The notes beneath the pieces were generated by a model that had not been told where the DNA came from, did no database searches, and was given only the letters and a program-made list of their open reading frames with translations. From Alphaproteobacteria bacterium (GTDB lineage Bacteria; Pseudomonadota; Alphaproteobacteria; JAJFFI01), in assembly GCA_030066595.1 (NCBI GenBank), contig JASJBI010000023.1, forward strand, positions 85,717 through 149,716: a stretch of DNA of 64,000 nucleotides, read 5' to 3'. Every line of letters starts with the position of its first letter. Position 1 is the first letter of the stretch. The position numbers and the translations under genes are program-made. Below are positions 3,432 through 51,831 of the stretch, in pieces.

Positions 3432-3538
3432 CGATTTCCTACTCCCTGTTTGCTGTCTGCCGGTTGCACCGGCTGTTTGCCTAGATCCGGCCGGCGCCAT
3501 GTGCCGCCGTCCCCAGACCGTTGAAATCCGGTTCGCCC

Positions 3539-4642
3539 TCACGTCCGGACGGACGCATCGAGCGCACGGCAATCCTCGGCCATCCAGCCCACCTTGACCT
3601 GTTCGCCCGGCTTGAGGTGGGCGTGGCCGGCGGCGTTCGGCACCTTGACGATGAAATCGTCATGGCCGCACAGATTGACCCGGGTCCGCACGTGATCGCC
3701 GAGATAGATCAGCTCTTCCACGCGGGCGTCGAACACGTTCGGCACGCTGCCGTTGGTCGGGTTGATGACCACCCGCTCGGGCCGCAGCGATAGCGTGGTC
3801 TCGGTCCCCTGGCCGTCGATGTTCACGGCCAGCGCCTGCACTTCGCCGCCGCCCTCGAGCTCGACCGTGCAGCCGCTGCCGTTAACGCCCCGGACCTGGC
3901 CGAAGAGCCGGTTGTTCTCGCCGATGAAGCTCGCGACGAAAGCGTTGTCAGGCTTCTCATACAAGACGTCCGGCGCGGCCAGCTGTTGGATCACGCCGTC
4001 GTCGAACACCGCGATGCGGTTCGACATGGTCAGTGCCTCGGACTGGTCGTGGGTGACATAGACCACCGTGACCTCGAGGTTCTCGTGGATGTGCTTGATC
4101 TCATATTGCATCTGCTCGCGCAGATTCTTGTCCAGCGCACCCAGGGGCTCGTCCATCAGCACCAGCTTGGGGTCGAAGACCAAGGCCCGCGCCACGGCCA
4201 CGCGTTGCTGCTGGCCGCCGGAGAGCTGGCCCGGCCGGCGCCCGCCGAAACCGCCGAGCTGGACCATGTCGAGGGCCCGGTTGACCCGCTGGGTGGTCTC
4301 TTCCTTGGGCGCCTTGCGCACCTGCAGCGGAAAGGCCAGGTTCTCCGCCACCGTCATGTGCGGGAACAGGGCGTAGTTCTGGAACACCATGCCGATGTCA
4401 CGCTTGTGCGGCGGCACATTGTTGATGGGATTGCCGTCCAGATAGATCTCACCATGGGTCGCGGGCTCGAACCCCGCGAGCATCATCAGGCAGGTGGTCT
4501 TGCCCGAACCCGAGGGGCCGAGCATGGTGATGAACTCGCCCTTCTCGATATCGAGATTGAGATTTTTGACGACGAGGGTCTCGCCGTCATAGCTCTTCTG
4601 GACTTCTCGAAAGCTGACGTAGGCCTCAATGCTGTTCGCCAT
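3539..4642 (-). CDS. ABC transporter ATP-binding protein (PotA/PotG-like)
   Basis: Walker [12 protein letters not shown] signature [15 protein letters not shown], Walker [14 protein letters not shown]-terminal TOBE-like domain; start trimmed to MANSIEAY (cat at 4640-4642). Confidence 0.85.
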
Positions 4643-4945
4643 GACCCGGCAATTGCCCCAACCCTGTTCAATGTCCCCGTCCTGATGGCGGGGTGTTTTT
4701 TTTCTTGCTGGCGCGCCAGAAGGCCGGCGGCCCCTCTGGCATGCCAGCGCAAATACTAAGGGATAACTTGGTGGAGGAAAACCCCGCGATTCCGACGCTT
4801 TTCCGTCGGATTCCGGCATCATGGCCAGCTCCGCCCAGCCAGACCAGTGAGCGATATCATCCAAGAATCAGGAGCTTATCGCCTACGCGGCCATGGAAAC
4901 CAAGACCGCGCATGAGGACCTGACAACGCCGCTCAGGCGCGTGCC

Positions 4946-6160
4946 TCAGGCCGCCTGGCGGAGGTGGAGCCGCTCCCAGACCTGGGTCAGCGCGGCGACC
5001 AGCGCGTCCATCTTGGCGTCGTCGTGCAGGGGCGAGGGCGTGATCCTGAGCCGCTCGGTGCCCTTGGGCACGGTCGGGTAGTTGATCGGCTGGATGTAGA
5101 TGCCGTGCTCCGCCATCAAGAGGTCGCTGGCCTGCTTGCAGGCCACCGGATCGCCCACCAGCACCGGCACGATATGGGTCTCGGACGGCATCACCGGCAG
5201 CCCCGCCTCGGCCAGGAGGTGCTTGAGCCGGGCCGCCCGCTCCTGATGCCGGTCGCGCTCCGTCTGGCTCGCCTTCAGGTGCCGCACCGAGGCCAGCGCC
5301 GCCGCCACCAGGGCCGGCGCCAGGGCGGTCGTGAAGATGAAACCCGGCGCGTAGCTGCGCACCGCGTCCACCAGTGCCGCCGAGCCCGCGATGTAGCCGC
5401 CCATCACCCCAAACGCCTTGGCCAAAGTGCCCTCGATCACCGTCAGCCGGTCCATCACCCCGTCCCGCTCGGCGATCCCGGCGCCCCGCGGGCCATAGAG
5501 ACCGACCGCGTGCACCTCGTCCAAATACGTCATCGCCCCGTAGCGCTCCGCCAGATCGCAGATCGCCCCGATCGGCGCCACGTCGCCATCCATGGAATAG
5601 ACCGACTCGAAGGCCACCAGCTTGGGCGCGTCTTGAGGCGCCGCCGCCAGCAACTCCTCCAGATGGGCCAGATCGTTGTGCCGGAAGATCCGCTTCTCCG
5701 TCCCGGAATGCTTGATCCCCTCGATCATCGAGGCGTGGTTCCAAGCGTCCGAAAAGATGATGCAGCCCGGCAGCAGCTTCGCCATGGTGCTCAAGCAGGC
5801 CTCGTTCGCCACATAGCCCGAGGTGAACAACAAGGCCGCCTCGGTCCCGTGCAGGTCCGCCAGCTCCCGCTCCAACAAAACATGCTGGTGCGTCGTCCCC
5901 GAGATGTTGCGCGTGCCGCCCGCCCCCGCCCCCATGCGCTCGGCCGTCGCCGTCATCGCCGCAACCACGTCCGCGTGCTGGCCCATGCCCAGATAGTCGT
6001 TCGAGCACCAGATCACCACGTCCCGCGGATCCTCGCCCCCACCGTAGCTCAAGGCCTCCGGAAACCGACCGCAGCGCCGCTCCAAATCCGCAAACACACG
6101 GTACCGACCCTCACCCTTGACCTGCTCGACCGCCTGACGAAACCGCTCTTCGTAGTTCAT
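4946..6160 (-). CDS. hemA: 5-aminolevulinate synthase
   Basis: Full-length similarity pattern to ALAS ([26 protein letters not shown]-lysine region [12 protein letters not shown]); start trimmed to MNYEERFRQ (cat at 6158-6160). Confidence 0.9.
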
Positions 6161-7461: not shown

Positions 7462-7956
7462 ATGTACGCGGTCCGCCTCTGGTCGGTGCGCCACGCCAAG
7501 GGGCTGAACCGCCTCTATCACGCATTCGAGTGGGTGATCCGCCGGCTGCACCCCCTGTGCGCGCGGATCGGCTATGACCGGCTCGAGCGCCCGGTGGCGG
7601 CGGTCGAGAAACCGATCAAGGAATTCCTGTTCGACTGTCGCATGTGCGGCCAGTGCGTTCTGTCCGAGACCGGCATGTCCTGCCCGATGAACTGTCCCAA
7701 GGCGCTGCGCAACGGGCCCTGCGGCGGGGTGCGGGCGGATGGCGGCTGCGAGGTCGAGCCCGAGATGCGCTGCGTCTGGGTCGCCGCCTGGGAGGGCGCC
7801 CAGCGCATGGGCACGGAGCCGACCCTGGCGCTGCAGGCGCCCGTAGACCACAGCCTGCTCGGCCGCTCCTCCTGGCTGCGCGTGGTCCGCGCGCTCGGCC
7901 AAGAGGCCCAGCCTGTGGCGGACGAAGGCCGCAAGGGGGCGACGGTGCCGCGATGA
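7462..7956 (+). CDS. MTHFR C-terminal-domain (MetV-like) Cys-rich protein
   Basis: Cys cluster CRMCGQCVLSETGMSCPMNCPKALRNGPCGG; SD GAGGGAG 10 nt upstream; ATGA stop/start overlap with the downstream metF-like gene. Confidence 0.6.
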   Translation: MYAVRLWSVRHAKGLNRLYHAFEWVIRRLHPLCARIGYDRLERPVAAVEKPIKEFLFDCRMCGQCVLSETGMSCPMNCPKALRNGPCGGVRADGGCEVEPEMRCVWVAAWEGAQRMGTEPTLALQAPVDHSLLGRSSWLRVVRALGQEAQPVADEGRKGATVPR

Positions 7957-9047
7957 GCCAGGACGAAGGCGAGGTCCGCGAAGATCTGTTCGGCTATGCC
8001 AGTCCCGGCCCGCCGCCGCCCGGCTATTCCTCGCACGGATGGCTCGAGCATCTCTTGCGCAGCGGCGTGTTCGCGGTGACCGCGGAGCTCAACCCACCGG
8101 ACTCCGCCGATCCCTACGAGGTCTACGAGCGCGCCGCGGTCCTGGCCGAGGTGGTCGACGCGATCAACGCCACCGACGCCTCGGGCGCCAATGTGCACAT
8201 GTCCAGCGTCGGCATCTGCGCGCTCTTGACCCGGGACGATCTGGCGCCGGTGCTGCAGGTCTCCTGCCGGGACCGCAACCGCATCGCCATCCAGGGCGAC
8301 GTCCTTGGGGCCGCCGCCATGGGCGTATGCAACGTCTTGTGTCTGACCGGCGACGGGGTCGGCGTCGGCGACCAGCCCGAGGCCAAGCCGGTCTTCGATC
8401 TCGACTGCATGTCGCTCTTGAGCACGATCCGGATGATGCGGGACGAGGGCCGGTTTCTCTCCGGCCGGCCGCTCACCGAGCCGCCCAAGGTGTTCCTCGG
8501 CGCGGCCGCCAACCCGTTCGTGCCGCCCTACGACTTCCGCCCGCTCCGGCTGGCCAAGAAGATCGAGGCGGGCGCCCAGTTCGTGCAGACCAACTATTGC
8601 TTCGACCTGCCGATCCTCAAGGACTACATGGCCCGGGTGCGGGACCTGGGCCTCGACGAGACCTGCTTCATCCTGGTCGGCGTGGGGCCGCTGGCGAGCG
8701 CCCGCGCGGCCCGGTGGATCCGCTCCCGGGTGCCCGGCATCCACATCCCGGACGCGGTGGTCGAGCGGCTCGAACGCGCCGGCGACCCGCGCCTCGAGGG
8801 CAAGAAGCTCTGCATCGAGCTGATCCAGGAGATCCGCGAGATGCCGGGCGTGGCCGGCGTGCACATCATGGCCTACCGCCAGGAGGAGATGGTGGCCGAC
8901 ATCGTCGCCGAGTCGGGCGTGCTGGAAGGCCGCACCGAGGCGCAGATCGGGCTCGCCGGGCTCAGGCGGCAGCAGGCCCGCAAGCGCCGGACGATGCTGG
9001 AGATTCTCGGGCGCAGATTCCGTCGGACAGAAGACCGGGATAGCTGA
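7953..9047 (+). CDS. metF: 5,10-methylenetetrahydrofolate reductase (MetF family)
   Basis: ORF 7644..9047 trimmed to MSQDEGEV (atg 7953-7955); MetF-family TIM-barrel pattern (AVTAELNPP..., QFVQTNYCFD..., HIMAYRQEEM). Confidence 0.8.
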   Translation: MSQDEGEVREDLFGYASPGPPPPGYSSHGWLEHLLRSGVFAVTAELNPPDSADPYEVYERAAVLAEVVDAINATDASGANVHMSSVGICALLTRDDLAPVLQVSCRDRNRIAIQGDVLGAAAMGVCNVLCLTGDGVGVGDQPEAKPVFDLDCMSLLSTIRMMRDEGRFLSGRPLTEPPKVFLGAAANPFVPPYDFRPLRLAKKIEAGAQFVQTNYCFDLPILKDYMARVRDLGLDETCFILVGVGPLASARAARWIRSRVPGIHIPDAVVERLERAGDPRLEGKKLCIELIQEIREMPGVAGVHIMAYRQEEMVADIVAESGVLEGRTEAQIGLAGLRRQQARKRRTMLEILGRRFRRTEDRDS

Positions 9048-14716: not shown

Positions 14717-17152
14717 CTAAGCCCTCAGCCGTTCGTTCTCCGGGTCGAACGGGGACTCCGGGATCACCGTGGCGCGGTGGCGGTCGCCCAGGATCTCGAT
14801 CTCGAGATCGGTGCCAAGCTCGGCCAGCTCCGGCCGCACCATGCCCAGCGCCAGGCTCTTGCCCAGCCGCCAGCCGTAGTTGCCGCTGGTGGCGCGGCCG
14901 ACCAGGGTGCCGTTCTGGTAGATCGGCTCGTTGCCGCGGGCGTCCACGTCGCCGACGTCGTGCACCTCGAGCGTGACGAATGCATTTTGGAAGCCCCGCT
15001 GCTGCCACTCGACCAGGGCGTCGCGGCCGATGAACTGCTCCTTGTTCAGGCGCACGAACCGGTTCAGGCCGGATTCCAGCGCCGCGTACTCGATCGAGAG
15101 CTCCCGCGGGATCAGCCGGTAGGACTTCTCGACGCGCAGGCTGTCCATGGCGCGGATGCCGAAGGGTTGCAGATCGAATTCCGCGCCCGCGTCGAACAGG
15201 AGGTCGTAGATGTAGTTCTGCATCTCGATCGGATGATGCAGCTCCCAGCCCAGCTCGCCGACGAAATTGACGCGCAGCGCGTGGGCCTGGGCGCAGCCCA
15301 CATTGACGAACTGGCCCGAGAGCCACGGGAAGGTCTCGGTCGAGAGGTCCGTGTCCGTGACCTTCTGCAAGAGATCCCGTGAATGCGGCCCGGCCACGAC
15401 CAGCACGCCGTACTGGCTCGTCACCTTCTGCAGCCGGACGCTGCCGTCCGGGGGCAAGAGCTTGGTCAGATAGTCGTCGTCGTGCCGCTCCATGGCGCCG
15501 GCCGAGACCAGGTAGAACCGGTCCGGGGCCTGGCGGTAGATGGTGAACTCCGAACGCACGCCGCCGTTGCCCGACAACATGTGGCAGAGGCCGATGCGCC
15601 CGACCGTCTGGGGCAGCCGGTTGGCCACGAGCCCGTCGAGCCAGGCCTCGGCCCCCGGCCCGCTCACCTGGAACTTGGAGAAGGCGGACATGTCCAGGAG
15701 CCCGACCTTCTCGTGCACGTGCCGGCACTCGTTGCCGACATGCTCGAAATAGTTGGTGCGGCGGAAGGACCAGACATCCTTGGGCTCGACGCCTTCGGGC
15801 GCGAACCAGTTGGGGCGCTCCCAGCCGTACACCTGGCCGAACACGGCGCCGCGCGCCTTCATGCGGTCGTAGCAGGGGGTCTGCTTCAAGGGGCGCGCGG
15901 CCGGGCGCTCCTCGTCCGGGAAGTGGATGGTGAAGACGTTCGCATACGCCTCCTCGTTCTTCTCCTTGAGGTAGCCGCGCGAGGCATAGGGGCCGAACCG
16001 CCGCGGGTCGACGCCCATCATGTCGATGGTCGATTCACCCTCGACGATCCACTCGGCGAGCTGCCAGCCCGCACCGCCCGCCGCCGTGATGCCGAAGCTG
16101 TGGCCCTCGTTGAGCCAGAAGTTGGGCAGATCCCAGGCCGGGCCGATGATCGGCGAGCCGTCCGGCGTGTAGCAGATGGCGCCGTTGTAGACCTCCTTGA
16201 CGCCGACCTCGCCGAAGGCCGGCACCCGGAAGATCGCCGACTCGATATGCGGCTCCAGCCGGTCGAGATCCTCCTGGAACAGCTCGTATTCGGCGTTTTC
16301 GCTGGGGCCGTCCACATAGCAGCAGGGCGCGCCGATCTCGTAGGGGCCGAGCAAGAGGCCGCCGGCCTCCTCGCGCATGTACCAGGACGCGTTCGAGTCC
16401 CTGAGCACGCCCATCTCCGCCAAGCCCTGCTCGTGCCGGGCCTGGATCTCGGGGTGGGGCTCGGTGACGATGAACTGGTGCTCGACCGGGATCACCGGGA
16501 TCTCGAGCCCGACCATGGCGCCGGTCTGGCGGCAGAAGTTGCCGCTGGCCGAGACCACGTGCTCGCAGGTGATGTCGCCCTTGTCCGTCTGAACCCGCCA
16601 TTCGCCCGCGGCCGTGCGCTCGATACCGGTCACCGTGGTCTGGCGGTAGATCTCGGCGCCGCCGGTCCGCGCGCCTTTGGCCAATGCCTGGGTCAGATCG
16701 GCGGGCTGGATGTAGCCGTCCTCGGGATGCTGGATCGCGCCGATCAGCCCCTCGGTGTTGCAGAGCGGCCAGATCTCCTTGACCTGTTCGGGGGTGAGAT
16801 GGCGCACGTCGACGCCGATCGTCTTGGCCACGCCGACATAGTAGTTGTACTCGTCCATGCGCTCCGGGGACGAGGCGAGGCGGATGTTCGAGACCCGGCG
16901 CAGGCCCACGTCCTGGCCGGTCTCCTCCTCGAGCTTCCCGTAGAGCGCCACCGAGTATTTGTGGATCTGGCCGACGCTGTAGCTCATGTTGAAGAGCGGC
17001 AGGAGCCCGGCCGCATGCCAGGTGGAGCCCGAGGTGAGCTCCTTGCGCTCGACCAGCACCACGTCCGACCAGCCCTTCTTGACGAGGTGATAGAGCGTCG
17101 ACACGCCGACGACGCCGCCGCCGATCACCACCACGCGCGCGTGTGATTTCAT
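14717..17152 (-). CDS. dimethylglycine/sarcosine dehydrogenase-family oxidoreductase (FAD-dependent oxidase domain + GcvT-type folate-binding C-domain)
   Basis: 811 aa; N-terminal dinucleotide fold VVVIGGGVVGVSTLYHL, C-terminal aminomethyltransferase-fold region; length matches dimethylglycine dehydrogenase. Confidence 0.85.
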   Translation of the reverse strand: MKSHARVVVIGGGVVGVSTLYHLVKKGWSDVVLVERKELTSGSTWHAAGLLPLFNMSYSVGQIHKYSVALYGKLEEETGQDVGLRRVSNIRLASSPERMDEYNYYVGVAKTIGVDVRHLTPEQVKEIWPLCNTEGLIGAIQHPEDGYIQPADLTQALAKGARTGGAEIYRQTTVTGIERTAAGEWRVQTDKGDITCEHVVSASGNFCRQTGAMVGLEIPVIPVEHQFIVTEPHPEIQARHEQGLAEMGVLRDSNASWYMREEAGGLLLGPYEIGAPCCYVDGPSENAEYELFQEDLDRLEPHIESAIFRVPAFGEVGVKEVYNGAICYTPDGSPIIGPAWDLPNFWLNEGHSFGITAAGGAGWQLAEWIVEGESTIDMMGVDPRRFGPYASRGYLKEKNEEAYANVFTIHFPDEERPAARPLKQTPCYDRMKARGAVFGQVYGWERPNWFAPEGVEPKDVWSFRRTNYFEHVGNECRHVHEKVGLLDMSAFSKFQVSGPGAEAWLDGLVANRLPQTVGRIGLCHMLSGNGGVRSEFTIYRQAPDRFYLVSAGAMERHDDDYLTKLLPPDGSVRLQKVTSQYGVLVVAGPHSRDLLQKVTDTDLSTETFPWLSGQFVNVGCAQAHALRVNFVGELGWELHHPIEMQNYIYDLLFDAGAEFDLQPFGIRAMDSLRVEKSYRLIPRELSIEYAALESGLNRFVRLNKEQFIGRDALVEWQQRGFQNAFVTLEVHDVGDVDARGNEPIYQNGTLVGRATSGNYGWRLGKSLALGMVRPELAELGTDLEIEILGDRHRATVIPESPFDPENERLRA

Positions 17153-17394: not shown

Positions 17395-19047
17395 TTGCAG
17401 ACCGTGGACCCTCCGAGCATGATGGCGGGCCGGCCCGACAGAGTTTCCCAACGGGCCGAACCCAAGGACCAGAGCCGGCCGATGGCCCCATTGCTCCATC
17501 TGGGACAGACACTCCAGGCGCACGCCCATGTGACGCCGGAGCGGACGGGCGCGGCCGATCTCGAGCGCAGCATGACCTTCCGGCAATGGAATGCGAGGGC
17601 CTGCCGGCTGGCGAACGCGCTCCTGGGCCTGGGGTTGAGCAAGGGTGATCGGGTTGCCGTGCTCGCCTACAACCGCATCGAATGGCTTGAGATCTACGCC
17701 GCCGTGGCCAAGGCGGGCCTGATCGCGGTGCCGGTCAACTTCCGGCTCGTCGCGCCTGAGATCCGATTCATCGTCGAGAACTGCGAGGCGCGGGCGCTGA
17801 TCGTCGAGGACGCGCTTTTGGGCGCCGTCGAGGAGACTCGCCACGATCTACCGATCGACCGGGGCGCCTTCGTTCATCTCGGCAAGAGCGCCGCGCCGGC
17901 CGGCTACGTGGCCTACGAAGACCTCATCGCTGCCGCTGCCGGGGACGAGCCCGATGCCCGAGTCGCGCCCGGGGACACCTGGTCCCTGATGTACACGTCC
18001 GGCACGACCGGCAATCCCAAGGGCGCGATCCGGAGCCACGGCGCCGGCGCGCTGCTGTCGCTGACGACGGAGGTCGAGCTCGGCTTCAGCGCCCGTGATA
18101 CGGGCCTTCTGGTCATGCCGATGTGCCACGCCAACTCGCTGAACTTCCTCGGCGCACTGACCTATTGTGGCGCGCCGGTGACGGTCTACAGCCGGCCACG
18201 TTTCGACCCGGAGCATCTCCTTCGCTCGCTCGCGAACGGCATCGCGACCTTCACGTCGCTGGTTCCGACGCACTACGTGATGATGCTGGGGCTTGGGCGA
18301 CAGCTTCTCGAGAGCCTCAATCCCGAGCGGATCACCAAGCTGATGATCTCTTCGGCGCCCGCCCGCCGAGACACCAAAGAGGCGATCCTCGGCTACTTTC
18401 GAAACTCGGGGCTCTGGGAGCTTTACGGCTCGACCGAACAGGGCTGGGCGACCATGTTGCAGCCCGAGGACCAGTTCAGAAAGCTCGGCTCGGTGGGACG
18501 GGAATGCATCGGCACGGCGCCGATCCGGCTGCTCGACGAGGAGGGCCGCGATGTGCCCCAAGGCCAGGTGGGCGAGCTCTACTCGGCGACGCCCTACGCC
18601 TTCGACGGGTACTGGAAGTTGCCGGACAAGACGGCAGAAGCCTTCCGCGGCGACCATCTTTCCGTTGGCGACCTCGCCTGGCGCGACGAGGACGGCTTCT
18701 ATTACCTGGTCGACCGCAAGAGCAACATGATCATCTCGGGCGGCGAGAACGTCTACCCGTCCGAGGTGGAGAACGCGCTGGGCGCCCATGCGGCGGTCAA
18801 GGACGTGGCGGTGATCGGGGTGCCGGACGCCAAATGGGGCGAACGGGTGCATGGGGTTGTGGTGCTGCATGCCGGCGCCGAGGCGAGCGAGGCGGAACTC
18901 GTGGCCTGGTGCCGCGAGCGCCTCGCCGGGTACAAGCGGCCGCGCTCGATCGCGATGATCCCCGAGGCGGACATGCCGCGGACCAGCACCGGCAAGATCC
19001 TGCATCGGGCGCTGCGCGAGCGCTTTGCGGAGACGGACGAGGCCTGA
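17395..19047 (+). CDS. AMP-dependent acyl-CoA synthetase/ligase (FadD-like)
   Basis: ANL motifs YTSGTTGNPKG, GYGSTE, SGGENVYPSEVE, terminal lysine region; true start possibly Met30 (17482) or MTFRQW. Confidence 0.85.
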   Translation: MQTVDPPSMMAGRPDRVSQRAEPKDQSRPMAPLLHLGQTLQAHAHVTPERTGAADLERSMTFRQWNARACRLANALLGLGLSKGDRVAVLAYNRIEWLEIYAAVAKAGLIAVPVNFRLVAPEIRFIVENCEARALIVEDALLGAVEETRHDLPIDRGAFVHLGKSAAPAGYVAYEDLIAAAAGDEPDARVAPGDTWSLMYTSGTTGNPKGAIRSHGAGALLSLTTEVELGFSARDTGLLVMPMCHANSLNFLGALTYCGAPVTVYSRPRFDPEHLLRSLANGIATFTSLVPTHYVMMLGLGRQLLESLNPERITKLMISSAPARRDTKEAILGYFRNSGLWELYGSTEQGWATMLQPEDQFRKLGSVGRECIGTAPIRLLDEEGRDVPQGQVGELYSATPYAFDGYWKLPDKTAEAFRGDHLSVGDLAWRDEDGFYYLVDRKSNMIISGGENVYPSEVENALGAHAAVKDVAVIGVPDAKWGERVHGVVVLHAGAEASEAELVAWCRERLAGYKRPRSIAMIPEADMPRTSTGKILHRALRERFAETDEA

Positions 19048-26132: not shown

Positions 26133-26243
26133 TATTGGAAGTCGGCCGAAACACAATCGCCCCACCCCGGCCTATCTAACTTGCGCCTCGGCGGGCCCGG
26201 CAGCGGGCGCCGGCAACCCAGACATGCGAAGGAGCGTTGGGTA

Positions 26244-27635
26244 ATGGCAGAGCAGGTGGCCACCTCAGGCAATGGCGCGGGGCAGGGTGCGCCCGGCGTC
26301 GGACACAAGGCGAACGGCGGCGGCCATGCCGCGGTCCGCCAGATCACCTCGGTCGATCAGGGCGACCGGATCGTCCCCATCAATCTTAGGCAGAGCGGGC
26401 CGACGCCGGTCCAGATGCTGATCTCCACCCGCGTCCGGAAGAACGCCTACTGGCACCTATCGCACCAGGCGGGCTGTTGGCGGGCCACGGTGTACAACCG
26501 CATGTACCACCCGCGCGGCTACGTCCGTCCCGAGGACGGCGGCGCCATGGTCGAATACGACGCCATCGTCAACCACGTCACCATGTGGAACGTGGCCGTC
26601 GAGCGCCAGATCCAGGTCAAGGGCCCCGATGCCGAGGCCTTCGTCAACTACGTGATCACCCGCGACGCCACCCGCATCGAGCCGATGCACGGCAAATACG
26701 TGATCCTGTGCAACGAGAAGGGCGGGATCCTGAATGACCCGGTGCTGCTGCGACTGGCCGAGGACGAGTTCTGGTTCTCGCTGTCGGACTCGGACATCCT
26801 GTTCTGGCTCCAGGGCGTCAATGTCGGCAGGAAGTTCAACGTCGAGATCAGCGAGATCGACGTCTCGCCGGTGCAGATCCAGGGGCCCAAGTCCGAGGCC
26901 TTGATGGCGGATCTGGTCGGCGACGGCATCCGCGACATGCCCTATTACGGCCTGTTGGAGGCCAAGGTCGGCGGCCGCGACTGCGTCATCTCCCAATCGG
27001 GCTTTTCCGGCGAGAAAGGCTACGAGATCTATCTGCGCGACTCGATGCTGTATGCCGAGGACATGTGGAACGCCGTGCTCGAGGCCGGCAAGAAGCACAG
27101 CCTCATGGTGATCGCCCCGGCGCACCACCGGCGCATCGCCGCGGGCATCCTGTCCTGGGGCCAGGATCTGGACCACGAGACCCTGCCCTTCCAGTGCAAT
27201 CTGAGCTACCAGGTCCCGCGCAAGAAGACCGCCGACTACATCGGCAAGGCGCGCCTGGAAGAGGTGCGCGCGCAGGTCGAGGCCGGCAACCCGCCTTATA
27301 AGAACACGCTCGTGGGCATTGCATTGGGCGGCAAGCCGATCGAGGACTACGCCCCCGATTTCTGGCTGATCTCGGGCGAGGACGGCGGCGCGCCGGTGGG
27401 CTACGTCACCTCGCCCTGGTACTCGCCCGAGCTCGAAACCAATATTGCCATGGGCTATGTGCCGTGGGAGATGCGCGATCTCGGCACGCGGCTCAAGATC
27501 TGGCTGCCGGACCAGTATGCCGAGACGCCGGGCGTGCCCGTGGACGGCCGGATCGTCGAGGTCCCGTTCCGCCCGTCGGTCAACCCGAACGCCCGCGAGA
27601 TCGCCAAATCCGAAGGCCGCGACGCGGCATTCTGA
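26244..27635 (+). CDS. aminomethyltransferase (GcvT/DmdA) family protein, probable THF-dependent demethylase
   Basis: ORF trimmed to MAEQVATS (atg 26244, SD AGGAG upstream); GcvT-fold pattern (YDAIVNHVTMWNVAVERQIQVKGPDAEAFVNYVITRD...); 463 aa with ~100-aa N-terminal extension relative to GcvT. Confidence 0.8.
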   Translation: MAEQVATSGNGAGQGAPGVGHKANGGGHAAVRQITSVDQGDRIVPINLRQSGPTPVQMLISTRVRKNAYWHLSHQAGCWRATVYNRMYHPRGYVRPEDGGAMVEYDAIVNHVTMWNVAVERQIQVKGPDAEAFVNYVITRDATRIEPMHGKYVILCNEKGGILNDPVLLRLAEDEFWFSLSDSDILFWLQGVNVGRKFNVEISEIDVSPVQIQGPKSEALMADLVGDGIRDMPYYGLLEAKVGGRDCVISQSGFSGEKGYEIYLRDSMLYAEDMWNAVLEAGKKHSLMVIAPAHHRRIAAGILSWGQDLDHETLPFQCNLSYQVPRKKTADYIGKARLEEVRAQVEAGNPPYKNTLVGIALGGKPIEDYAPDFWLISGEDGGAPVGYVTSPWYSPELETNIAMGYVPWEMRDLGTRLKIWLPDQYAETPGVPVDGRIVEVPFRPSVNPNAREIAKSEGRDAAF

Positions 27636-42148: not shown

Positions 42149-43804
42149 GTGAGGGGAGGCCTCGAGATGGCGACAGACCATGCATTGATGCAAGAGGAGA
42201 TGCGGGCCAAATCCGGCTGGCTCAAAGGGCTCAATCCGGAAGTGGCGCTGATCTCCAAATTCATCGTATTCGCCTTGGTTATCTTTGCGGCGATCTGGAC
42301 GAAGGAGGCGGGCGGCCTGTTCTCCGCCGTCAAGGATTGGATGGTGACCGGGCTGAAATGGTACTACATCGGCATTGTCGCCATCTTCCTGTTCTACTGC
42401 TTCTGGCTGCTGATCAGCCGCTACGGCAACATCCGCCTGGGCCGCGACGACGAGCGCCCGGAATTCAGCTATTTCTCCTGGTTCGCGATGCTGTTCGGGG
42501 CCGGCATGGGCATCGGACTGGTGTTCTGGAGCATCGCCGAGCCGATGTACCATTTCGACAGCAATCCGTTCATCGCGGAAGGCCAGTCCCAGACCGCCGA
42601 AGGCGCCAGGACGGCGATGCGGATCACCTTCTTCCACTGGGGCCTCCACCCCTGGGCGATCTACGTGATCGTGGCGCTGTCGCTGGCCTACTTCGCCTAT
42701 CGGCGCGGCCTGCCCCTGTCGATCCGATCGTCGTTGTATCCCTTGATCGGCGACCGGATTTACGGGCCGATCGGCCATGCTGCGGACATCCTGGCGATCT
42801 TCGGCACCGTGTTCGGCGTGGCGACCTCGCTGGGCCTCGGCGTGCAGCAGATGGCCACCGGCCTGTATGAGCTCACCGGCGCCGAGATGTTCATTCAGCT
42901 CGACGCCGAGGGCAACCAGGCGCCCAACACCGCCGCGATGCTGGTGCTGATCGCGATCATCTCGGCCATCGCCACGGTCTCGGTGGTCTCGGGCGTGGGC
43001 AAGGGCATCCGCATCCTGAGCGAGCTCAATCTCTGGCTCTCCATCTCGATCCTGGTGTTCCTACTGGTCTTCGGGCCGACGCTGTTCCTGCTGGAATCCC
43101 TGCTGCAGGCGACTGGCGACTACCTGCAGCACGTCATCCCGCTGAGTTTCTGGACGGCGGCCAACATCGAGACGCCGTGGCAGGGCTGGTGGACCGCGTT
43201 CTACTGGGGCTGGTGGATCTCCTGGGCCCCCTTCGTGGGCATGTTCATCGCCCGCATCTCCCGCGGCCGGACCATCCGCGAATTCGTGCTGGGGGTCCTG
43301 CTGGTGCCCACGCTGCTGGCCTTCGTCTGGCTGACGCTGTTCGGCGGCACCGCGCTCCACATCGAGCTGTTCGGAGACGGCGGCATCGTCGAGGCGGTGA
43401 AGAAGGACGTGACCGTCGCCCTCTACACCACGTTCGCAAAGATGGACGTGGGCTTCGTCGGCACCCTGTTCTCGGCCGTGGCGACCTTGCTGATCGCCAC
43501 CTACTTCATCACCTCGTCCGATTCCGGCACGCTGGTGGTGAATACGTTGATGTCGGCCGGCGATCCGAATCCGCCCACGGTGCACCGGGTGATCTGGGGC
43601 CTCGGTGAAGGTGCCGTGGCCGCCGTGCTGTTGGTGGCGGGCGGGCTGTCGGCGCTGCAGACCGCCTCGATCACCGGCGCCCTGCCCTTCTCGGTGATCA
43701 TGATCTTCATGTGCATCGGGCTGACCAAGGCGTTGAGCGAAGAGCAGGTCGGGCCGCAGTTCGCGCCGGCGGCCAGTGGCGGCGGCGCGCCTGCCGGCGA
43801 ATAG
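42149..43804 (+). CDS. BCCT-family (betaine/carnitine/choline) transporter
   Basis: 551 aa, 12 TM, BCCT signature-like Trp-rich segment (WTAFYWGWWISWAPFVGMFIARIS); possible start MATDHAL at 42167. Confidence 0.85.
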   Translation: MRGGLEMATDHALMQEEMRAKSGWLKGLNPEVALISKFIVFALVIFAAIWTKEAGGLFSAVKDWMVTGLKWYYIGIVAIFLFYCFWLLISRYGNIRLGRDDERPEFSYFSWFAMLFGAGMGIGLVFWSIAEPMYHFDSNPFIAEGQSQTAEGARTAMRITFFHWGLHPWAIYVIVALSLAYFAYRRGLPLSIRSSLYPLIGDRIYGPIGHAADILAIFGTVFGVATSLGLGVQQMATGLYELTGAEMFIQLDAEGNQAPNTAAMLVLIAIISAIATVSVVSGVGKGIRILSELNLWLSISILVFLLVFGPTLFLLESLLQATGDYLQHVIPLSFWTAANIETPWQGWWTAFYWGWWISWAPFVGMFIARISRGRTIREFVLGVLLVPTLLAFVWLTLFGGTALHIELFGDGGIVEAVKKDVTVALYTTFAKMDVGFVGTLFSAVATLLIATYFITSSDSGTLVVNTLMSAGDPNPPTVHRVIWGLGEGAVAAVLLVAGGLSALQTASITGALPFSVIMIFMCIGLTKALSEEQVGPQFAPAASGGGAPAGE

Positions 43805-45395: not shown

Positions 45396-46192
45396 TGCCT
45401 GAACTGACTTACGCGCCCTATGTCTTCGTCGTCCTGCTGCTCGCCATTCTGGCGGTCTCGCTCAAGATCCTGCGCGAGTACGAGCGCGGTGTGATCTTTT
45501 TGTTGGGCCGGTTCTGGAAGGTCAAGGGGCCCGGGCTGATCATCGTCATCCCGGTGATCCAGCAGATTGTGCGGGTCGATCTGCGCACGCGCGTCCTCGA
45601 TGTGCCCGAGCAGGACGTGATCTCCCGCGACAACGTCTCGGTGAAGGTCAACGCGGTGGTGTATTTCCGCGTCATCGACCCGCAGAAATCGATCATTCAG
45701 GTCGAGGATTTCCACGCCGCCACCAGCCAACTGGCCCAGACCACGCTGCGGTCGGTGCTCGGCCAACACGAGCTCGACGAAATGCTGGCCGCGCGGGAGC
45801 GGCTCAACGACCACATCCAGAAGATCCTGGATGCGCAAACAGACGCCTGGGGGATCAAGGTCTCCAATGTCGAGCTCAAGCATGTCGACCTGGACGAGAG
45901 CATGATCCGCGCCATCGCCAAGCAGGCGGAGGCGGAGCGCGTGCGCAGGGCCAAGATCATCAACGCGGAGGGCGAGCTGCAGGCGGCGGAGAAACTCTTG
46001 CAGGCGGCGGAGATCATCGCCCAGGAGCCCGAGGCGCTGCAGCTTCGTTATTTCGGCGCGCTGCACGATATCGCCAGCGAGCGCACGTCGACGATCGTAT
46101 TTCCCCTGCCCATCGACATCCTGAGCGCCTTCCGACGGCTTGGCGGCAAAGCTGCGGGAGAGGAATCAGGTGGCGCGCCTGCCGGAGAATAG
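45392..46192 (+). CDS. SPFH/band-7 (stomatin-like) protein
   Basis: N-terminal TM then SPFH domain ([34 protein letters not shown]); ATGA overlap with nfeD. Confidence 0.85.
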
Positions 46193-46316
46193 GCGGCACG
46201 AGACAGGCAGGCCGGAAAGGGCCAGAGCAAGAGAGGGCCGAAGTGCTGGCGGAGGGGCTCTGGTGCCATCACGACCGGTTCACGAATTGCAAACGGAGAT
46301 GGGCTAGGGTAAGCCT

Positions 46317-47804
46317 ATGAATCCGGCCGATATCCTTGCCGAGCACGCGCGCACCAGACCCGACCACCCGGCCATCGAGGACGGCGACCGGATCGTCAAT
46401 TACGGTGAATTGAACGACCGCGTCGCAAGCGCGGCCGCCAACCTGCAACGCGCCGGGATCGAGCCCGGAGACATCGTCGGCATCATGCTGCCGGACTCGG
46501 CCGACTACCTGATCACGCTTTGCGCCGTGGCGAATGCCGGCGCGGTTACCTTCGCGATCGATCCCCAGCTACCGCCCAGGGAGAAGGAGTGCAGCCTGGT
46601 TGACGTGCCCGTGAAGGCGATCATCGCGCAGGCGGATGCGCAACCCGTGCCCAATGTCACCCGTCTTCCGCTCGACCGGGTGGTGCGGCCGCAAGCGGAG
46701 AACCCAGAGCCATTCGTCGCGCCGAACCTCCAGCCAGACCATCCGCATACCTTCGTCCAAACGTCAGGCACAACCGGCAATCCAAAGCGGCTCCTCTTGA
46801 GCCATGCCCAAAGAGCCGACTTCATAGAGCGCAACATGCGTACGGAAGGTTGGGTTTCGACCGACCGGTACCTGGCCGTCGTGCAGATGACATTCAGCAT
46901 CGGACGCGTGAGCTGTATCGGCATGCTCCATATCGGTGCAACGGTGGTCATCAACTCTGCAACCTCCGCCGCAGAGTTGGTCTCCCGGGTACAAGATCAG
47001 CGGATCACGATCCTACGCCTGACATCCGCCCATCTGCGCGGACTGCTCGACCACGCCGCTCACCGTTCTGCGGATGACCTGCCCCTGTTCCCGAACCTGC
47101 GTATGCTGGCCGTGACCGCGGCGCCGACCGCGCACGAACTGCGTCTGCTCGTGCGAACATCTCTAACACCGAATTTGCTCGAGCGATACGGAACCAACGA
47201 AATCGGGGTTGTCGCGGTGTCGGCACCCCCCGACCAGGACGCTTACCCGGACTCGCTTGGGCGCGTGATCGACGGTATCCAAGCGCAGGTCGTGGATGCC
47301 AACGACCAGCCCTTGCCCTCGGGCCAGGCCGGCTTGATTGGATTTCGCGGACCGAGATTGCCAACCGAGTATTATCGAAATGCGGAAGCGACCGCCCAGT
47401 GTTTTCGAGATGGCTGGTTCTATCCCGGCGATCTGGCCGCCTTGAACGAAGACGGCTACGTGTTCTTCAAGGGTCGGGCGGATGACGTCATCAACAACCA
47501 AGGCGCCAAGTTCTATCCCGTCGAAATCGAGACCGTTCTGTTGTCGCATCCGGCCGTGACGGAGGCGGCGGTCTTCGGCTGGCCGCATAAGCAGTTTGGA
47601 GAGTGCGCAGTGGCCGTCGTCGTAGCCAAGGCGCAGATCACGGCTGAGGCGCTGGCCCAGTTCTGCCGGGAACGTATTGCCGCATACAAGGTGCCGGTCT
47701 GGATCATGTTTGTGTCGGCGATGCCCAAGAACCCGATGGGCAAGATCGTCAAGGCCCGGCTCAGAGAGATGTTCCGAGGGCAAACGGCCCGGCAGTCGGA
47801 ATGA
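46317..47804 (+). CDS. adenylate-forming (ANL) acyl-CoA ligase, paralog 1 of 3
   Basis: TSGTTGNPK, GWFYPGDLAAL, DGYVFFKGRADD, AYKVPVWIMFVSAMPKNPMGKIVK; 495 aa. Confidence 0.85.
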   Translation: MNPADILAEHARTRPDHPAIEDGDRIVNYGELNDRVASAAANLQRAGIEPGDIVGIMLPDSADYLITLCAVANAGAVTFAIDPQLPPREKECSLVDVPVKAIIAQADAQPVPNVTRLPLDRVVRPQAENPEPFVAPNLQPDHPHTFVQTSGTTGNPKRLLLSHAQRADFIERNMRTEGWVSTDRYLAVVQMTFSIGRVSCIGMLHIGATVVINSATSAAELVSRVQDQRITILRLTSAHLRGLLDHAAHRSADDLPLFPNLRMLAVTAAPTAHELRLLVRTSLTPNLLERYGTNEIGVVAVSAPPDQDAYPDSLGRVIDGIQAQVVDANDQPLPSGQAGLIGFRGPRLPTEYYRNAEATAQCFRDGWFYPGDLAALNEDGYVFFKGRADDVINNQGAKFYPVEIETVLLSHPAVTEAAVFGWPHKQFGECAVAVVVAKAQITAEALAQFCRERIAAYKVPVWIMFVSAMPKNPMGKIVKARLREMFRGQTARQSE

Positions 47805-47871
47805 GCCCGGTAGAACCAGCCCGGCGCAAGCGGCCTGGCCCGGCTCAAGCGACGATCACGGATCCCCTGCA

Positions 47872-49356
47872 ATGAACCTCGCGGATATCCTGAGCCGTCA
47901 TGCGGAGACCCGCCCGGACCGCCCGGCCATCGAGGACGGCGATCGGACGATCACGTATGGGGAGCTCGATGTCCGCGTGACCGACGCGGCAGCACGGCTG
48001 CAGGCGGCCGGGGTGCGGTCAGGCGACGTCGTCGGCGTCATGCTGCCGGACTCGGCCGACCATTTGATCGTGCTCTGGGCACTCGCGCGGGCCGGCGGCG
48101 TGGCGCTCTCGCTCAATGCGGCACTGCCGATGACTGAGAAGCTCCGAAGTGTCGCCCAGGTCGATGTCACGCACTTGATCACGGATCCGGGCAGCCCTGG
48201 GGTCGGGGATCTGCGCGTTCTGCCGGTACAGGACGTCGTAACCAGCGCGCCGCCAGAGGCAACCGAAACGGCGCCCTTCGTCGCCCCCGCGCTCCGGCCC
48301 GAGGCCCCCGTCACGATGCTGCAGACGTCCGGAACCACGGGCGCCCCGAAACTGATTGTGCGCAGCCACGCGCAGTTCAAGGACTACATCCGGCGAGACC
48401 AGCAGGGCCATGGCTTCACGCCAACCGATCGATACCTGGCCGTGGTCCGGATGTCCTTCTCCTTCGGGCGCGACAGCTGTCTCAGCATGACCTACATCGG
48501 GGCGACGGTCGTCATCGACCGCTCCACTTCCCGGGATGGCCTGATCGCCGCCGTGCGGGAAGAACGGATCACGGCCTTGATCCTCACCCCGGCGCATCTG
48601 CGCGCCCTTCTCGACCACGCCGACGTCGATGGCGTCCTGTTTCCCCAAGTCCGGGCACTGGTCGTGGGCTCGGCGGCAGTCACCTCCGAGGAACGGCTGC
48701 GCGCACGCCTGCGGCTGACACCCAGCCTGCAGGAACGATATGGTCTCAATGAAACCGGGGCCATCGCTGTTGCCGCTCCGGCCGATCAAGACGCCGTGCC
48801 CGACGCCGTGGGGCGATTGCTGGACGGAATCGACGCACAAGTCGTGGATTCCGACGGCCGGCCCTTGCCCACTGGGGAAGTCGGGTTGATCGGCTTCCGT
48901 GGAGCGCACTTTCCGACAGGGTACTTCCGAGACCCGGACGAGACGGCGCGCGCCTTCCGCGACGGTTGGTTCTATCCCAGTGATCTCGCGGCCCTGAACG
49001 ACGATGGATATGTCTTCCTCAAGGGCCGGGCGGACGACGTCATCAGCAACGAAGGCGCCATGTTCTACCCGATCGAAGTGGAGAACGTCCTGCTTATGCA
49101 CCCGGCCGTGGCCGAGGTGGCGGCCTTCGGCTGGCCGCACCCCCGGCAAGGCGAGGTCACGGCGGCGGCGGTCGTAATGAAGTCCGCCATCTCGTTCGAT
49201 GAGCTGTTCCGCCATTGTCAGCAGCACTTGGCGGCATACAAAGTGCCCAAAATGATCCTCGCGGTTCAGGAGATGCCCAAGAACCCGATGGGCAAGATCG
49301 TCAAGGCCCAGCTCAAGGAGCTCTTGCGGAAGGAACTGGCAAAGGATTCTACTTAA
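47872..49356 (+). CDS. adenylate-forming (ANL) acyl-CoA ligase, paralog 2 of 3
   Basis: ORF trimmed to MNLADILSRH (atg 47872); same motif set as paralog 1, near-identical C-terminal third. Confidence 0.85.
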   Translation: MNLADILSRHAETRPDRPAIEDGDRTITYGELDVRVTDAAARLQAAGVRSGDVVGVMLPDSADHLIVLWALARAGGVALSLNAALPMTEKLRSVAQVDVTHLITDPGSPGVGDLRVLPVQDVVTSAPPEATETAPFVAPALRPEAPVTMLQTSGTTGAPKLIVRSHAQFKDYIRRDQQGHGFTPTDRYLAVVRMSFSFGRDSCLSMTYIGATVVIDRSTSRDGLIAAVREERITALILTPAHLRALLDHADVDGVLFPQVRALVVGSAAVTSEERLRARLRLTPSLQERYGLNETGAIAVAAPADQDAVPDAVGRLLDGIDAQVVDSDGRPLPTGEVGLIGFRGAHFPTGYFRDPDETARAFRDGWFYPSDLAALNDDGYVFLKGRADDVISNEGAMFYPIEVENVLLMHPAVAEVAAFGWPHPRQGEVTAAAVVMKSAISFDELFRHCQQHLAAYKVPKMILAVQEMPKNPMGKIVKAQLKELLRKELAKDST

Positions 49357-49483
49357 CCACGAGAGCCGCCCGGTCGGCCATCTTGCCCGTCCCCCGAGCG
49401 GCGCTGGGATCTCCCGGCGCAAACGGGCGAACGGCGAGACGACCGCATCCTGGGAGGCGCCTTAACGCCCAAGAGGGACTACC

Positions 49484-50950
49484 GTGAACATTGCCGATGC
49501 TCTGAGAGATCATGCCCGCGACCGGCCGCACCATCCGGCGATCGAGGACGGCGACCGCGTCATCACCTATGCCGAGCTCGACGCGCTCGTGGACGCGGCG
49601 GCGGCCAATCTGCAGGCCGCCGGCATCGCGCCCGGCGACGTCGTCGGCATGACGCTGCCGGATTCCGCCGAGCACCTCATCATGTTTTGCGCCGCGGCGC
49701 GTGCCGGCGCCGTCATGCTGGCGATCGACAACGCATTGCCGCTGGCCGAGAAACAACGGCTCGTTGCGAACGCGAACCCGCGGGCGCTGATCGCGACGGC
49801 GGGCTCTCAGACGATCGGCGACCTGCCCGTCTTGCCGGTCGGCAAGATCTGTGGGCCGGCAACGTCGGCATTCGAGAGACCGGTCCTCGAGGCGGACCAC
49901 CCGCTCATCATCGCTCAATCGTCGGGAACAACGGGCGTGCCGAAATCCTTCCTGTGGAGTCACGCCCAAATGCATGAGCAGGCTCGTCGGCATCAGAGGT
50001 TCCTCGGCCTGTCGTGGCAGGACCGTTATCTGGCCGTCATCAGGATGAGCTTCGTCTGGGAACGCAAGACCTGTTTGATCTTGTTTTGCCTGGGCGCGAC
50101 GATTGTCGTGAATCACACCCGGTCCGTGGAAGACCTCGTCATGCGCGTGGCCGCGGGCCGGATCACGGTGCTGATCCTGACGCCCGCGCACCTGACGCAC
50201 ATTCTCGGATACCCGTCCGACCAGGCCCCTTTGTTTCCGTCGTTGCGTGTGATGCTCGTGGGCGGCGCGCCGCTCGCGCACCAAGACCGCATTCTGGCGA
50301 AAGAGCGGCTGACGCCGAGTTTCTATGAACAGCTTGGCACCAACGAGACCGGTTTCATGATTCTGTCAACGCCCGCCGACCAGGATGCCCATCCGGATGC
50401 CGTCGGGCGCGTCATCGAGGGAATCGAGGCACAGGTGTTGGACGCGGACGGGCACCCCCTGCCGCCGGGCGACGTGGGGTTGGTCGGCTTCCGCGGTGAG
50501 GTTTTCCCGACCGAATACGTCAACAACCCCAAGGACACGGCGCGCGCCTTCCGCGACGGTTGGTTCTATCCCGGCGATCTCGCCGCCATCGATGCGGATG
50601 GCTACTATTTCTTCAAGGGCCGGGCGGACGACATCATCAGCAACGAAGGCACCAAATTCTACCCGATCGAAGTGGAGAACGTCCTGCTTATGCACCCGGC
50701 CGTGGCCGAGGTGGCGGCCTTCGGCTGGCCGCATCCGGCGCACGGCGAAATGGCCGCGGCGGTGGTCACAACGAAAGCGCCGGTAGGCGCAGAGGAGCTG
50801 GAGCAGTTCTGCCGAGAACGCGTCGCCTATTACAAGGTGCCGGCTTGGATCATGATCGTGTCGGCGATGCCCAGAAACCCGATGGGCAAGATCGTCAAGA
50901 CCCGGCTCAAGGAGATGTTGCGCGCGGAACTCGCCAAGGCTTCGCCCTGA
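49484..50950 (+). CDS. adenylate-forming (ANL) acyl-CoA ligase, paralog 3 of 3
   Basis: GTG start after AGAGGGA; MNIADALRDH...; same motif set. Confidence 0.85.
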   Translation: MNIADALRDHARDRPHHPAIEDGDRVITYAELDALVDAAAANLQAAGIAPGDVVGMTLPDSAEHLIMFCAAARAGAVMLAIDNALPLAEKQRLVANANPRALIATAGSQTIGDLPVLPVGKICGPATSAFERPVLEADHPLIIAQSSGTTGVPKSFLWSHAQMHEQARRHQRFLGLSWQDRYLAVIRMSFVWERKTCLILFCLGATIVVNHTRSVEDLVMRVAAGRITVLILTPAHLTHILGYPSDQAPLFPSLRVMLVGGAPLAHQDRILAKERLTPSFYEQLGTNETGFMILSTPADQDAHPDAVGRVIEGIEAQVLDADGHPLPPGDVGLVGFRGEVFPTEYVNNPKDTARAFRDGWFYPGDLAAIDADGYYFFKGRADDIISNEGTKFYPIEVENVLLMHPAVAEVAAFGWPHPAHGEMAAAVVTTKAPVGAEELEQFCRERVAYYKVPAWIMIVSAMPRNPMGKIVKTRLKEMLRAELAKASP

Positions 50951-50986
50951 CCGGCATTTCGACCTGGGCCGGCCCCGCTGAAACCC

Positions 50987-51460
50987 CTATCCGCCGAGAT
51001 GCAACAGCTCGGGCCGGATCATCCAGGCGACCGTCCAGGCGCCGGCCTCGTCCCGCTCGAGACAGAGCAGGCTGCCCGGCCGGAAGGCCGCAACGGCAGG
51101 CTCCTCCCGTCCCGTCAGCAGCCGGGAGGCGAGCCGCGCCATGAAGGGCAGATGCCCGACCAGCACCGTGTCCTCCGCCATACCCTGCGCCTCCGCCGCG
51201 ATCGGCTCGACCGGATCGTTCGGCGCGAGCCCGGCGGCGGTCTCGATCGCCGCCTGCGGCGCGATGCCGCGGGCCAGCGCCTCGGCCGTCTCGCGCGCCC
51301 GGGTCTTGCCGCTGTGCACCACGCGGTCGGCGCTGACGCCCTGCCGCTCAAGGAACCTGGCCAGCGCCTCCACGTCGGCGCGGCCGGCGCTGGTCAGCGG
51401 CCTGTCCGGGTCGACGTCCTTCGGCGCCGCCTCGCCGTGCTGGACCAGATAGAGCTTCAT
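50987..51460 (-). CDS. histidine-phosphatase superfamily protein (SixA-like phosphohistidine phosphatase)
   Basis: N-terminal catalytic motif LYLVQHGEA (RHG-type His), C-terminal His region (LVGHLP); 157 aa as for SixA. Confidence 0.7.
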
Positions 51461-51831
51461 GCCAGCGCCTCCACGGTGATCGGGGCGCCGTCCCGCACGG
51501 GCGCCAGCGTGCGCACATCCTCCACCGCCCGGCCCCAGATGTTGGTCGGCGCGGCCAGCCGGATCTCGTCACCGCGCGAGATCGGCGTACGTCCGAAGCC
51601 GATGGCGATCGCGTCGCCCTCGACCCAGAAGGCGAGTTCGCCCGGCTCGACCACGTCGCGCGCGCCTGCCTCCCGGTCGACCTGGACCGGCGTCGAGAAG
51701 TAGACCTCCTCGCCCCAGGTCCGCGCGTCCGACGTGAACGGCAGGCTCTCGTGAATCGCATCCGCCGTCGGCGTCTCGAACAGCTCGGCGGTCAGAACGA
51801 CCGAGCCGATGGTCATCTTGATCTTGCGCAT
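51457..51831 (-). CDS. cyclophilin-like-fold protein (PF04126-type, function unknown)
   Basis: [23 protein letters not shown]...[17 protein letters not shown] resembles the conserved TM1367-like cyclophilin-like family; start chosen at Met8 of the ORF to avoid a 16-nt overlap. Confidence 0.55.

Follow-up and report, generated by a model that had tools for sequence, protein, structure and literature searches.

Sets of acyl-CoA ligase paralogs are common in versatile bacteria, the FadD proteins of Mycobacterium and the aromatic and alicyclic acid CoA ligases of Rhodopseudomonas palustris being examples, and the divergent members of the adenylate-forming (ANL) superfamily in such sets, some of them encoded by adjacent genes, are believed to act each on an acid of its own. 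Here we analyze three consecutive ANL genes in a 64,000-nucleotide stretch of an alphaproteobacterial contig (JASJBI010000023.1, positions 85,717 to 149,716 of the forward strand, assembly GCA_030066595.1), referred to below as the window, which has a GC content of about 67%. The genes encode Lig1 (46317..47804; ATG start, 495 residues; MDJ0949147.1), Lig2 (47872..49356; 494 residues; MDJ0949148.1) and Lig3 (49484..50950; GTG start, 488 residues; MDJ0949149.1), all on the plus strand and exactly where an earlier note, made from the sequence alone, had placed three consecutive open reading frames (ORFs). The start of Lig2 was taken at the ATG at 47872, which aligns with the conserved MNxADIL N terminus; the mechanical ORF extends to a TTG at 47677. 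Both the frequency of multi-copy ligase sets and the generic NCBI label of the three proteins, class I adenylate-forming enzyme family protein, were known already. In contrast to the Mycobacterium and R. palustris sets, the Lig paralogs represent one narrow subfamily and occur in head-to-tail arrays of two to at least five genes. All three are standalone ligases of an uncharacterized, mainly alphaproteobacterial ANL subfamily. We are confident that Lig1–3 are functional, ancient paralogs, and we favor, with some reserve, a role as standalone carboxylic-acid:CoA ligases with distinct substrates.

The best single-domain sequence matches of the subfamily are to ligases of the FadD type (Mycobacterium tuberculosis FadD5, 8r2q; FadD13, 3r44; PRK06187 and PRK08316), and FadD5 itself is matched over a single domain with an E value of 1.6e-55 by phmmer and with 290 bits by the family profile. 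Lig1–3 share with this type the two-domain ANL architecture, the catalytic residues of motifs A3, A5, A7, A8 and A10, and the motif 4 discussed below, but they are only ~30% identical to it and shorter (488–495 residues), have Phe for His at index 373 and Asn for Thr in A5, and lack the Gly that follows the P-loop PK. The best structural neighbors are ligases of aryl and substituted acids, namely MenE (5x8f), 4-chlorobenzoate-CoA ligase (CBL, 3cw9), 4-coumarate-CoA ligase (4CL, 5bst), feruloyl-CoA synthetase (8wev) and oxalyl-CoA synthetase (6qjz), which are standalone enzymes of comparable size with template modeling (TM) scores of 0.81–0.89 to an AlphaFold2 model of Lig1 (mean predicted local distance difference test score, pLDDT, 92.5; predicted TM score, pTM, 0.89). 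They differ from Lig1 in having only 22–29% identity to it, and because the pocket residues are not conserved between them no substrate can be transferred. The nearest solved structures by sequence (FadD5 8r2q, feruloyl-CoA synthetase 8wev and oxalyl-CoA synthetases) are about 30% identical. All listed NCBIfam families score below their curated cutoffs, the best being PRK06187 (long-chain-fatty-acid--CoA ligase) with 303–312 bits against 476, and the named families that fall short include PRK08316, FadD3, MenE, MatB, FadD5 and DHB-AMP ligase.

The three proteins are 54–57% identical to one another, far more than expected by chance and well above the 30% set in the earlier note as a floor for paralogy. 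Each has an AMP-binding domain (PF00501; 187–213 bits against a cutoff of 29.9, E values of 1e-55 to 1e-63) followed by AMP-binding_C (PF13193; 60–70 bits against 24.5), and the P-loop T/S-S-G-T-T-G-x-P-K, the A5 Glu, the A7 Asp, the A8 Arg, the hinge Asp and the A10 Lys are kept in all of them. In Lig1, again on the plus strand, these elements comprise the A3 P-loop TSGTTGNPK (46761..46787), in which the usual Gly that would come next is replaced by Arg; the A4 segment F193-S194-I195-G196-R197-V198 (46893..46910), with Phe at the His/Phe234 position; N294-E295 of A5 (YGTNE; 47196..47201), of which the Glu is invariant; the A7–A8 block FYPGD...GRADDVINNQGAK (47418..47510), with the invariant D372, R387 and D389 and the family-specific K398; and the catalytic Lys476 of A10 (PKNPMGK; 47742..47744). 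Of the 44 proteins in a family alignment, all have S150, T152, G154, K157, E295, D372, R387 and D389, and 43 have K476. The motif blocks had been described as almost identical between the copies, and all are indeed present, although with some substitutions (SSGTTG and MPRNPMGK in Lig3, YPSD and GAMFYP in Lig2). Between the paralogs the rate of nonsynonymous substitution (dN) is ~0.37 and that of synonymous substitution (dS) ~0.9–1.2, near saturation, giving a dN/dS ratio (omega) of 0.31–0.40. With catalytic motifs and ORFs intact in every copy, there is no sign of a pseudogene among them, which the earlier note had named as one ground for refutation.

Against this conserved chemistry, we compared the parts of the proteins that differ. 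Three-way identity is lowest (10–20%) over alignment columns 76–150, immediately ahead of the P-loop, reaches 23–40% across columns 196–300, the A4–A5 region, and is highest (50–70%) toward the C terminus, between column 286 and column ~420 and over the last 200 columns. The proposal that the copies diverge mainly in the mid-region, where ANL enzymes select their acyl substrate, is thus half right, because A4–A5 is the second most variable region but the largest drop in identity precedes the P-loop. The comparison of pocket residues covered the equivalents of the non-ribosomal peptide synthetase (NRPS) specificity code and of the index positions of Clark et al. At the equivalents of code positions 235/236/239, Lig1 has Ser/Ile/Val, Lig2 Ser/Phe/Asp and Lig3 Val/Trp/Lys, and the same three positions are hypervariable throughout the family (N/F/S/T/V/L, V/W/A/M/D/F and N/R/E/D/S/H, respectively). 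The residues that follow the NE of A5 also differ, reading IGVVAV, TGAIAV and TGFMIL across the copies, so that the divergence of substrate-facing positions anticipated in the earlier note is borne out at both A4 and post-A5. Since these pocket-facing residues differ between the copies and are hypervariable family-wide, Lig1–3 probably accept different acids; a constant chemistry alongside a variable pocket is the outcome expected from substrate diversification.

The same differences in all three copies argue against the possibility that Lig1–3 are redundant isozymes acting on one substrate, retained for dosage or regulation. A variant of this explanation holds that Lig2 is catalytically impaired or regulatory, and here the evidence is more particular to that copy. 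Lig2 alone carries G371S, in the YPGD of A7, and K398M, at index 650 in the A8 region, both at positions conserved in at least 90% of the family, and the index 650 residue contacts the AMP alpha-phosphate in other ANL enzymes; the ribosome-binding site of Lig2 is, moreover, the weakest in the array. When we scored departures at the 93 columns with a conservation of 90% or more across 121 family members, however, Lig2 had five, compared with three each for Lig1 and Lig3, which is within the range of a family whose median is three and whose 90th percentile is seven. Met at index 650 recurs in 2 of the 44 aligned members, the Lig2 ORF is intact, and its omega against the paralogs is as low as that given above. 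We therefore consider either form of this explanation improbable.

The earlier note had read the array as a local gene amplification, and a recent tandem triplication in situ, with rapid diversification of the substrates thereafter, would account for genes that are adjacent, co-oriented and of similar length, and for Lig1 and Lig2 being mutual best or near-best matches. A neighbor-joining tree that covers 121 family members, with an unrelated ANL protein of the window as root and with 100 bootstraps, does not bear this out. An exclusive clade of Lig1, Lig2 and Lig3 was recovered in only 2 of 100 bootstraps, whereas Lig3 grouped with P0016–P0019, P0021, P0030, P0042 and P0064 to the exclusion of Lig1 and Lig2 in 88 of 100, and it is 59–63% identical to this foreign orthogroup compared with 55–56% to Lig1 and Lig2. 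The near-saturated dS argues in the same direction, as does the finding that the regions upstream of the three genes do not align and that the spacers hold no residual homology. Because of the tree, the dS and the non-aligning upstream regions, we conclude that the paralog lineages are older than the lineage of this genome, and recent local triplication is a very improbable account that these data largely refute. What is new here is in part the evolutionary account, in which old paralog lineages, combined differently in different genomes, take the place of a recent triplication, and in part the delimitation of a coherent, mostly alphaproteobacterial ANL subfamily with signature residues, a hypervariable pocket and recurrent arrays, the longest with at least five genes.

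The relatives of Lig1–3 are numerous but distant. Among 185,579 representative genomes the closest are 45–51% identical and all come from metagenome-assembled genomes (MAGs) labeled Alphaproteobacteria, Hyphomicrobiales or Rhodospirillales, and a large protein database yielded 473 relatives at E <= 1e-30, of which the best 120 are 42–57% identical and for the most part carry a generic name or none. A search of plasmids found only relatives of 36–39% identity, in Variovorax, Comamonas and Rhizobium and with generic annotation. One entry in the 90% cluster of Lig1 (P0001), a 52-residue JGI protein called thioredoxin 1 (P0121), looks like a clustering artifact. Low GC content at third codon positions (GC3) in the array (0.76–0.82 compared with 0.85–0.93) was considered as a sign of horizontal acquisition and rejected, because an equal offset is present at other loci. 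Lower GC3 than in the neighboring genes was seen at 46317–50950 of the window and at L016 3389–10678, L017 10001–11473 and L018 2058–5145 (handles denote other loci in our set), and it is a trait of the family rather than a mark of recent transfer.

Lig-type genes are arranged in several ways elsewhere, and for this census subfamily membership was set at 44% identity or more. The largest array, of at least five head-to-tail copies, lies on a Logan contig (L016, SRR23272297; 2758–10678), where the last copy is cut by the contig end, spacers measure 13–143 nucleotides, the final two genes overlap by 4 nucleotides and a flavin-reductase gene precedes the array. Three of its members (P0079, P0085 and P0091) form an exclusive, lineage-specific clade in 99 of 100 bootstraps, so an expansion of the kind proposed for the window has occurred there. 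Two copies are present in L001, each with an ortholog on another contig (100 of 100 bootstraps), as well as in L018, L019 and L021, and at least two in L029. The pair in L104 and L105, found on 20 contigs, combines a Lig3-type protein, 55% identical to Lig3, with a P0006-type protein, which illustrates that the paralog lineages are combined differently in other genomes. Single subfamily genes occur in L002, L017, L022, L024, L027, L031 and L100. The L018 pair (2058–5145 of scaffold_4, ENA ERZ23486754; MDJ0950635 and MDJ0950634) shares its metagenome sample with the window, and its accessions fall into one block with those of Lig1–3. Given the shared sample and accession block, the two loci probably belong to the same MAG, which by this accession numbering would carry a three-gene and a two-gene array, with at least five subfamily members in all. 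The Lig2/Lig3 region of the window has a strain variant in L020, 98–99% identical at the protein level, whose 4 differences in Lig3 and 18 in Lig2 are too few for an informative dN/dS. Literature searches on tandem ANL arrays and on the accessions of the sample gave no specific result.

We then considered which acceptor the activated acid is passed to. NRPS adenylation (A) domains, like the carrier-loading enzymes EntE and DhbE, share with Lig1–3 the Phe at the PheA Phe234 position, and EntE–EntB has a TM score of 0.87 to the Lig1 model. The equivalent of Asp235, which binds the alpha-amino group, is nevertheless Ser in Lig1 and Lig2 and Val in Lig3 by alignment to LgrA, and the A-domain family TIGR01733 scores only 183–196 bits for Lig1 and Lig2 against a cutoff of 317.4 and is not among the 25 matches listed for Lig3. 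No PP-binding motif, carrier or condensation domain was found in the whole 64-kb window, in agreement with the earlier note, and no thioesterase or polyketide synthase (PKS) gene was found in the window or beside the arrays examined. As Asp235 is absent, TIGR01733 is below cutoff and carrier and condensation partners are missing, Lig1–3 are not amino-acid-activating NRPS domains. The label of CoA or AMP ligases that the earlier note gave them is plausible. The top profile match in the PDB, LgrA with 324 bits, was considered as a sign of NRPS affinity and discarded, since this score sums two A-domains (169 + 153), compared with 290 bits for FadD5 over one.

A more direct indication is given by motif 4, HPA[VI]A[ED]AAV[VI]G[VI]P[DH][PE]x[WAR]G[EQ]V[PV], which lines the active site and is reported to occur in CoA-using groups but to be absent from NRPSs and fatty acyl-AMP ligases (FAALs), both of which load carrier proteins (PMC6122825). 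In Lig1 the corresponding segment is HPAVTEAAVFGWPHKQFGECA (47547..47609, plus strand), with 14 of 21 positions matching the motif of Clark et al. 2018; Lig2 matches at 15 and Lig3 at 14 of 21. The three share the form HPAV[TA]E[AV]A[VA]FGWPH...GE, in which the core HPAV.E.A.FG.PH...GE is intact, and the presence of the motif would favor CoA as the acceptor. FAALs are marked by the lack of motif 4, by a specific insertion in the N-terminal domain and by an association with PKS/NRPS carrier proteins; with motif 4 present and a PKS/NRPS context absent, Lig1–3 do not resemble them on these two counts. Other index positions are less conventional. His occupies index 373 in 65% of ANL enzymes (His207 in CBL), Phe is the NRPS state and human MACS has Trp (PMC6122825), so that His is not strictly required, and Lig1–3 (Phe193), like 41 of the 44 aligned family members, have Phe rather than the His of CoA ligases. 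The A5 Thr is replaced by Asn in 42 of the 44, index 650 is Lys in 41 and index 652 is Tyr in 43, and the residue after the P-loop PK is Arg, Leu and Ser in Lig1, Lig2 and Lig3, with Ser, Thr or Arg for Gly across the subfamily.

Two of these residues speak for a second explanation of the array, in which the enzymes would adenylate acids without using CoA and either load a carrier protein encoded elsewhere, as EntE and DhbE do, or form amides in the manner of McbA and CfaL, building or tailoring a small metabolite. NRPS A-domains likewise have Phe at index 373, and NRPSs and MACS share the basic residue at index 650. A Foldseek search with the Lig1 model returned MenE, CBL, EntE, McbA and 4CL with TM scores of 0.85–0.89 and E values of 1e-45 to 1e-41, so that EntE–EntB and McbA match as well as CoA ligases do. 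Some relatives, moreover, stand beside genes for other ligases, either CapK_C-like (L103, L022 and L024) or ATP-grasp and cyanophycin-synthetase-like (L102 and L017). Set against this are the presence of motif 4, the absence of PP-binding, condensation, thioesterase and PKS genes both from the window and from the surroundings of the examined arrays, and the per-domain profile scores, which favor acyl-CoA synthetases (290 for FadD5 compared with 169 per LgrA A-domain). On this balance we regard a non-CoA role as unlikely.

For CoA ligases with distinct substrates, we propose the following mechanism. The P-loop, E295 and D372 of the N-terminal domain would bind Mg-ATP, and the same domain would bind the carboxylate; Lys476 of the C-terminal domain would catalyze formation of the acyl-AMP; the C-terminal domain would then turn at the GRADD hinge, with transfer of the acyl group to the thiol of CoA, a step suggested by motif 4 and by the nearest sequence relatives. 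Judging by the variable pocket positions, each of the three copies may take a different acid. Several observations weigh against this assignment. Phe at 373, the A5 Asn, PK[S/T/R] in place of PKG and Lys at 650 are atypical of CoA ligases, and the fold is as similar to the carrier-loading EntE and the amide-forming McbA as to CoA ligases. The subfamily has no characterized relative, no solved structure above about 30% identity and NCBIfam scores below cutoff, and no CoA-dependent downstream enzyme is consistently adjacent at the loci examined. On the evolutionary side, the phylogeny is a neighbor-joining tree only, and Lig1 and Lig2 are sisters in just 53 of 100 bootstraps. Because there is no characterized relative, we infer both the substrates and the acceptor. 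A further possibility, to which we assign a slim chance, is that the subfamily is a coherent "array" type of ANL enzyme that has gone unrecognized, marked by Phe 373, the A5 Asn, Lys 650 and the missing P-loop Gly. Its members would then not be independent acid scavengers but would stay head to tail because they cooperate, for example as hetero-oligomers, in activating successive carboxylates of one substrate, or as carrier-independent amide ligases that make a small product. If the substrates were identified, the family could help to explain the uptake of diverse organic acids by uncultured Alphaproteobacteria and could provide new ligases for biocatalysis.

The spacers between the genes have the lengths that had been reported for them, 67 nucleotides between Lig1 and Lig2 (47805..47871) and 127 nucleotides between Lig2 and Lig3 (49357..49483), the latter being 100% identical in the strain variant L020. 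The claim that every gene has its own ribosome-binding site holds for Lig1, with the Shine–Dalgarno sequence AGGG ~8 nucleotides 5' of its start, and for Lig3, with GAGGGA ~6 nucleotides before the GTG, but less well for Lig2, which is preceded by a weak GGA. No terminator-like hairpin was found in either spacer or 3' of Lig3, and because the spacers are short and terminators are absent, co-transcription of the three genes is plausible. An Rfam scan of 45800–51500 gave a single match at chance level, with 16.7 bits where the gathering score is 90. The octamer GCAA[A/G]CGG occurs at 46290–46297, 47828–47835 and 49421–49428, 20–65 nucleotides 5' of each start. It was considered as a shared signal, but was noticed post hoc in GC-rich DNA and is probably due to chance, since the upstream regions do not otherwise align. 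A tblastn search of the window found no additional copies or fragments of Lig1–3 besides the fourth, unrelated ANL gene at 17395–19047, whose product is 27–30% identical to them.

On the same strand, NfeD and SPFH/band-7 genes lie 5' of the array, which converges on genes for a SixA-like phosphatase, a cyclophilin-like protein, DUF427 and aspartate dehydrogenase. A BCCT transporter is encoded upstream of the array and TctCBA downstream, and the rest of the window holds ABC transporters, aminotransferases, one-carbon and betaine enzymes and similar functions. Clustering the neighbors from 19 loci, together with a reading of gene contexts, revealed no partner common to the whole subfamily. The L018 pair adjoins prophage-like genes (RusA, LexA-like and an HTH_3-Peptidase_S24 repressor), and SDR, ECH and metallo-beta-lactamase genes occur in other contexts. 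In one clade only (L103 7666–14123; L022 908–4964; L024 3161–8073; L001 227–4469) the ligase genes are accompanied by a convergent Opp/Dpp-type ABC transporter (SBP_bac_5 and two permeases), and in this clade a gene for a CapK_C-like protein of ~440–476 residues, a highly divergent ANL of the PaaK type, stands directly 5' of the ligase; L001 has two subfamily ligases where its clade mates have the CapK-like gene. The flavin reductase of L016, the prophage genes of L018 and the cyanophycin-synthetase-like genes of L102 were each considered as partners and set aside as one-off associations. Overall, the varied contexts fit self-contained activating enzymes that feed general metabolism.

One genome (JGI 3300063044, 2.05-Mb contig) has its two subfamily ligases in L102 (2839–12341) and L017 (7491–11473), each beside ATP-grasp/RimK-like genes. 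In L102 these are the cyanophycin-synthetase-like genes (ATP-grasp and Mur_ligase), and two distant tandem ANL genes (32–36% identity) lie nearby. Within the window, the plus-strand segment 17395–20814 begins with the unrelated ANL gene at 17395–19047 (PRK06187, 427 bits, below cutoff), which is separated by 30 nucleotides from a gene for a thiamine diphosphate (ThDP) enzyme matching NF058623 (2-hydroxyacyl-CoA lyase) with 1024 bits against a cutoff of 600; from these matches the two look like a 2-hydroxy-acid CoA ligase and lyase pair. The window also encodes a DAO-FAO_M-GCV_T fusion resembling dimethylglycine and sarcosine dehydrogenases (14717–17152, minus strand), a second GCV_T protein (26181–27635, plus strand), an MTHFR-like protein (7644–9047, plus strand) and the BCCT transporter (42149–43804, plus strand), which together suggest a region for one-carbon catabolism of betaine or methylamines.

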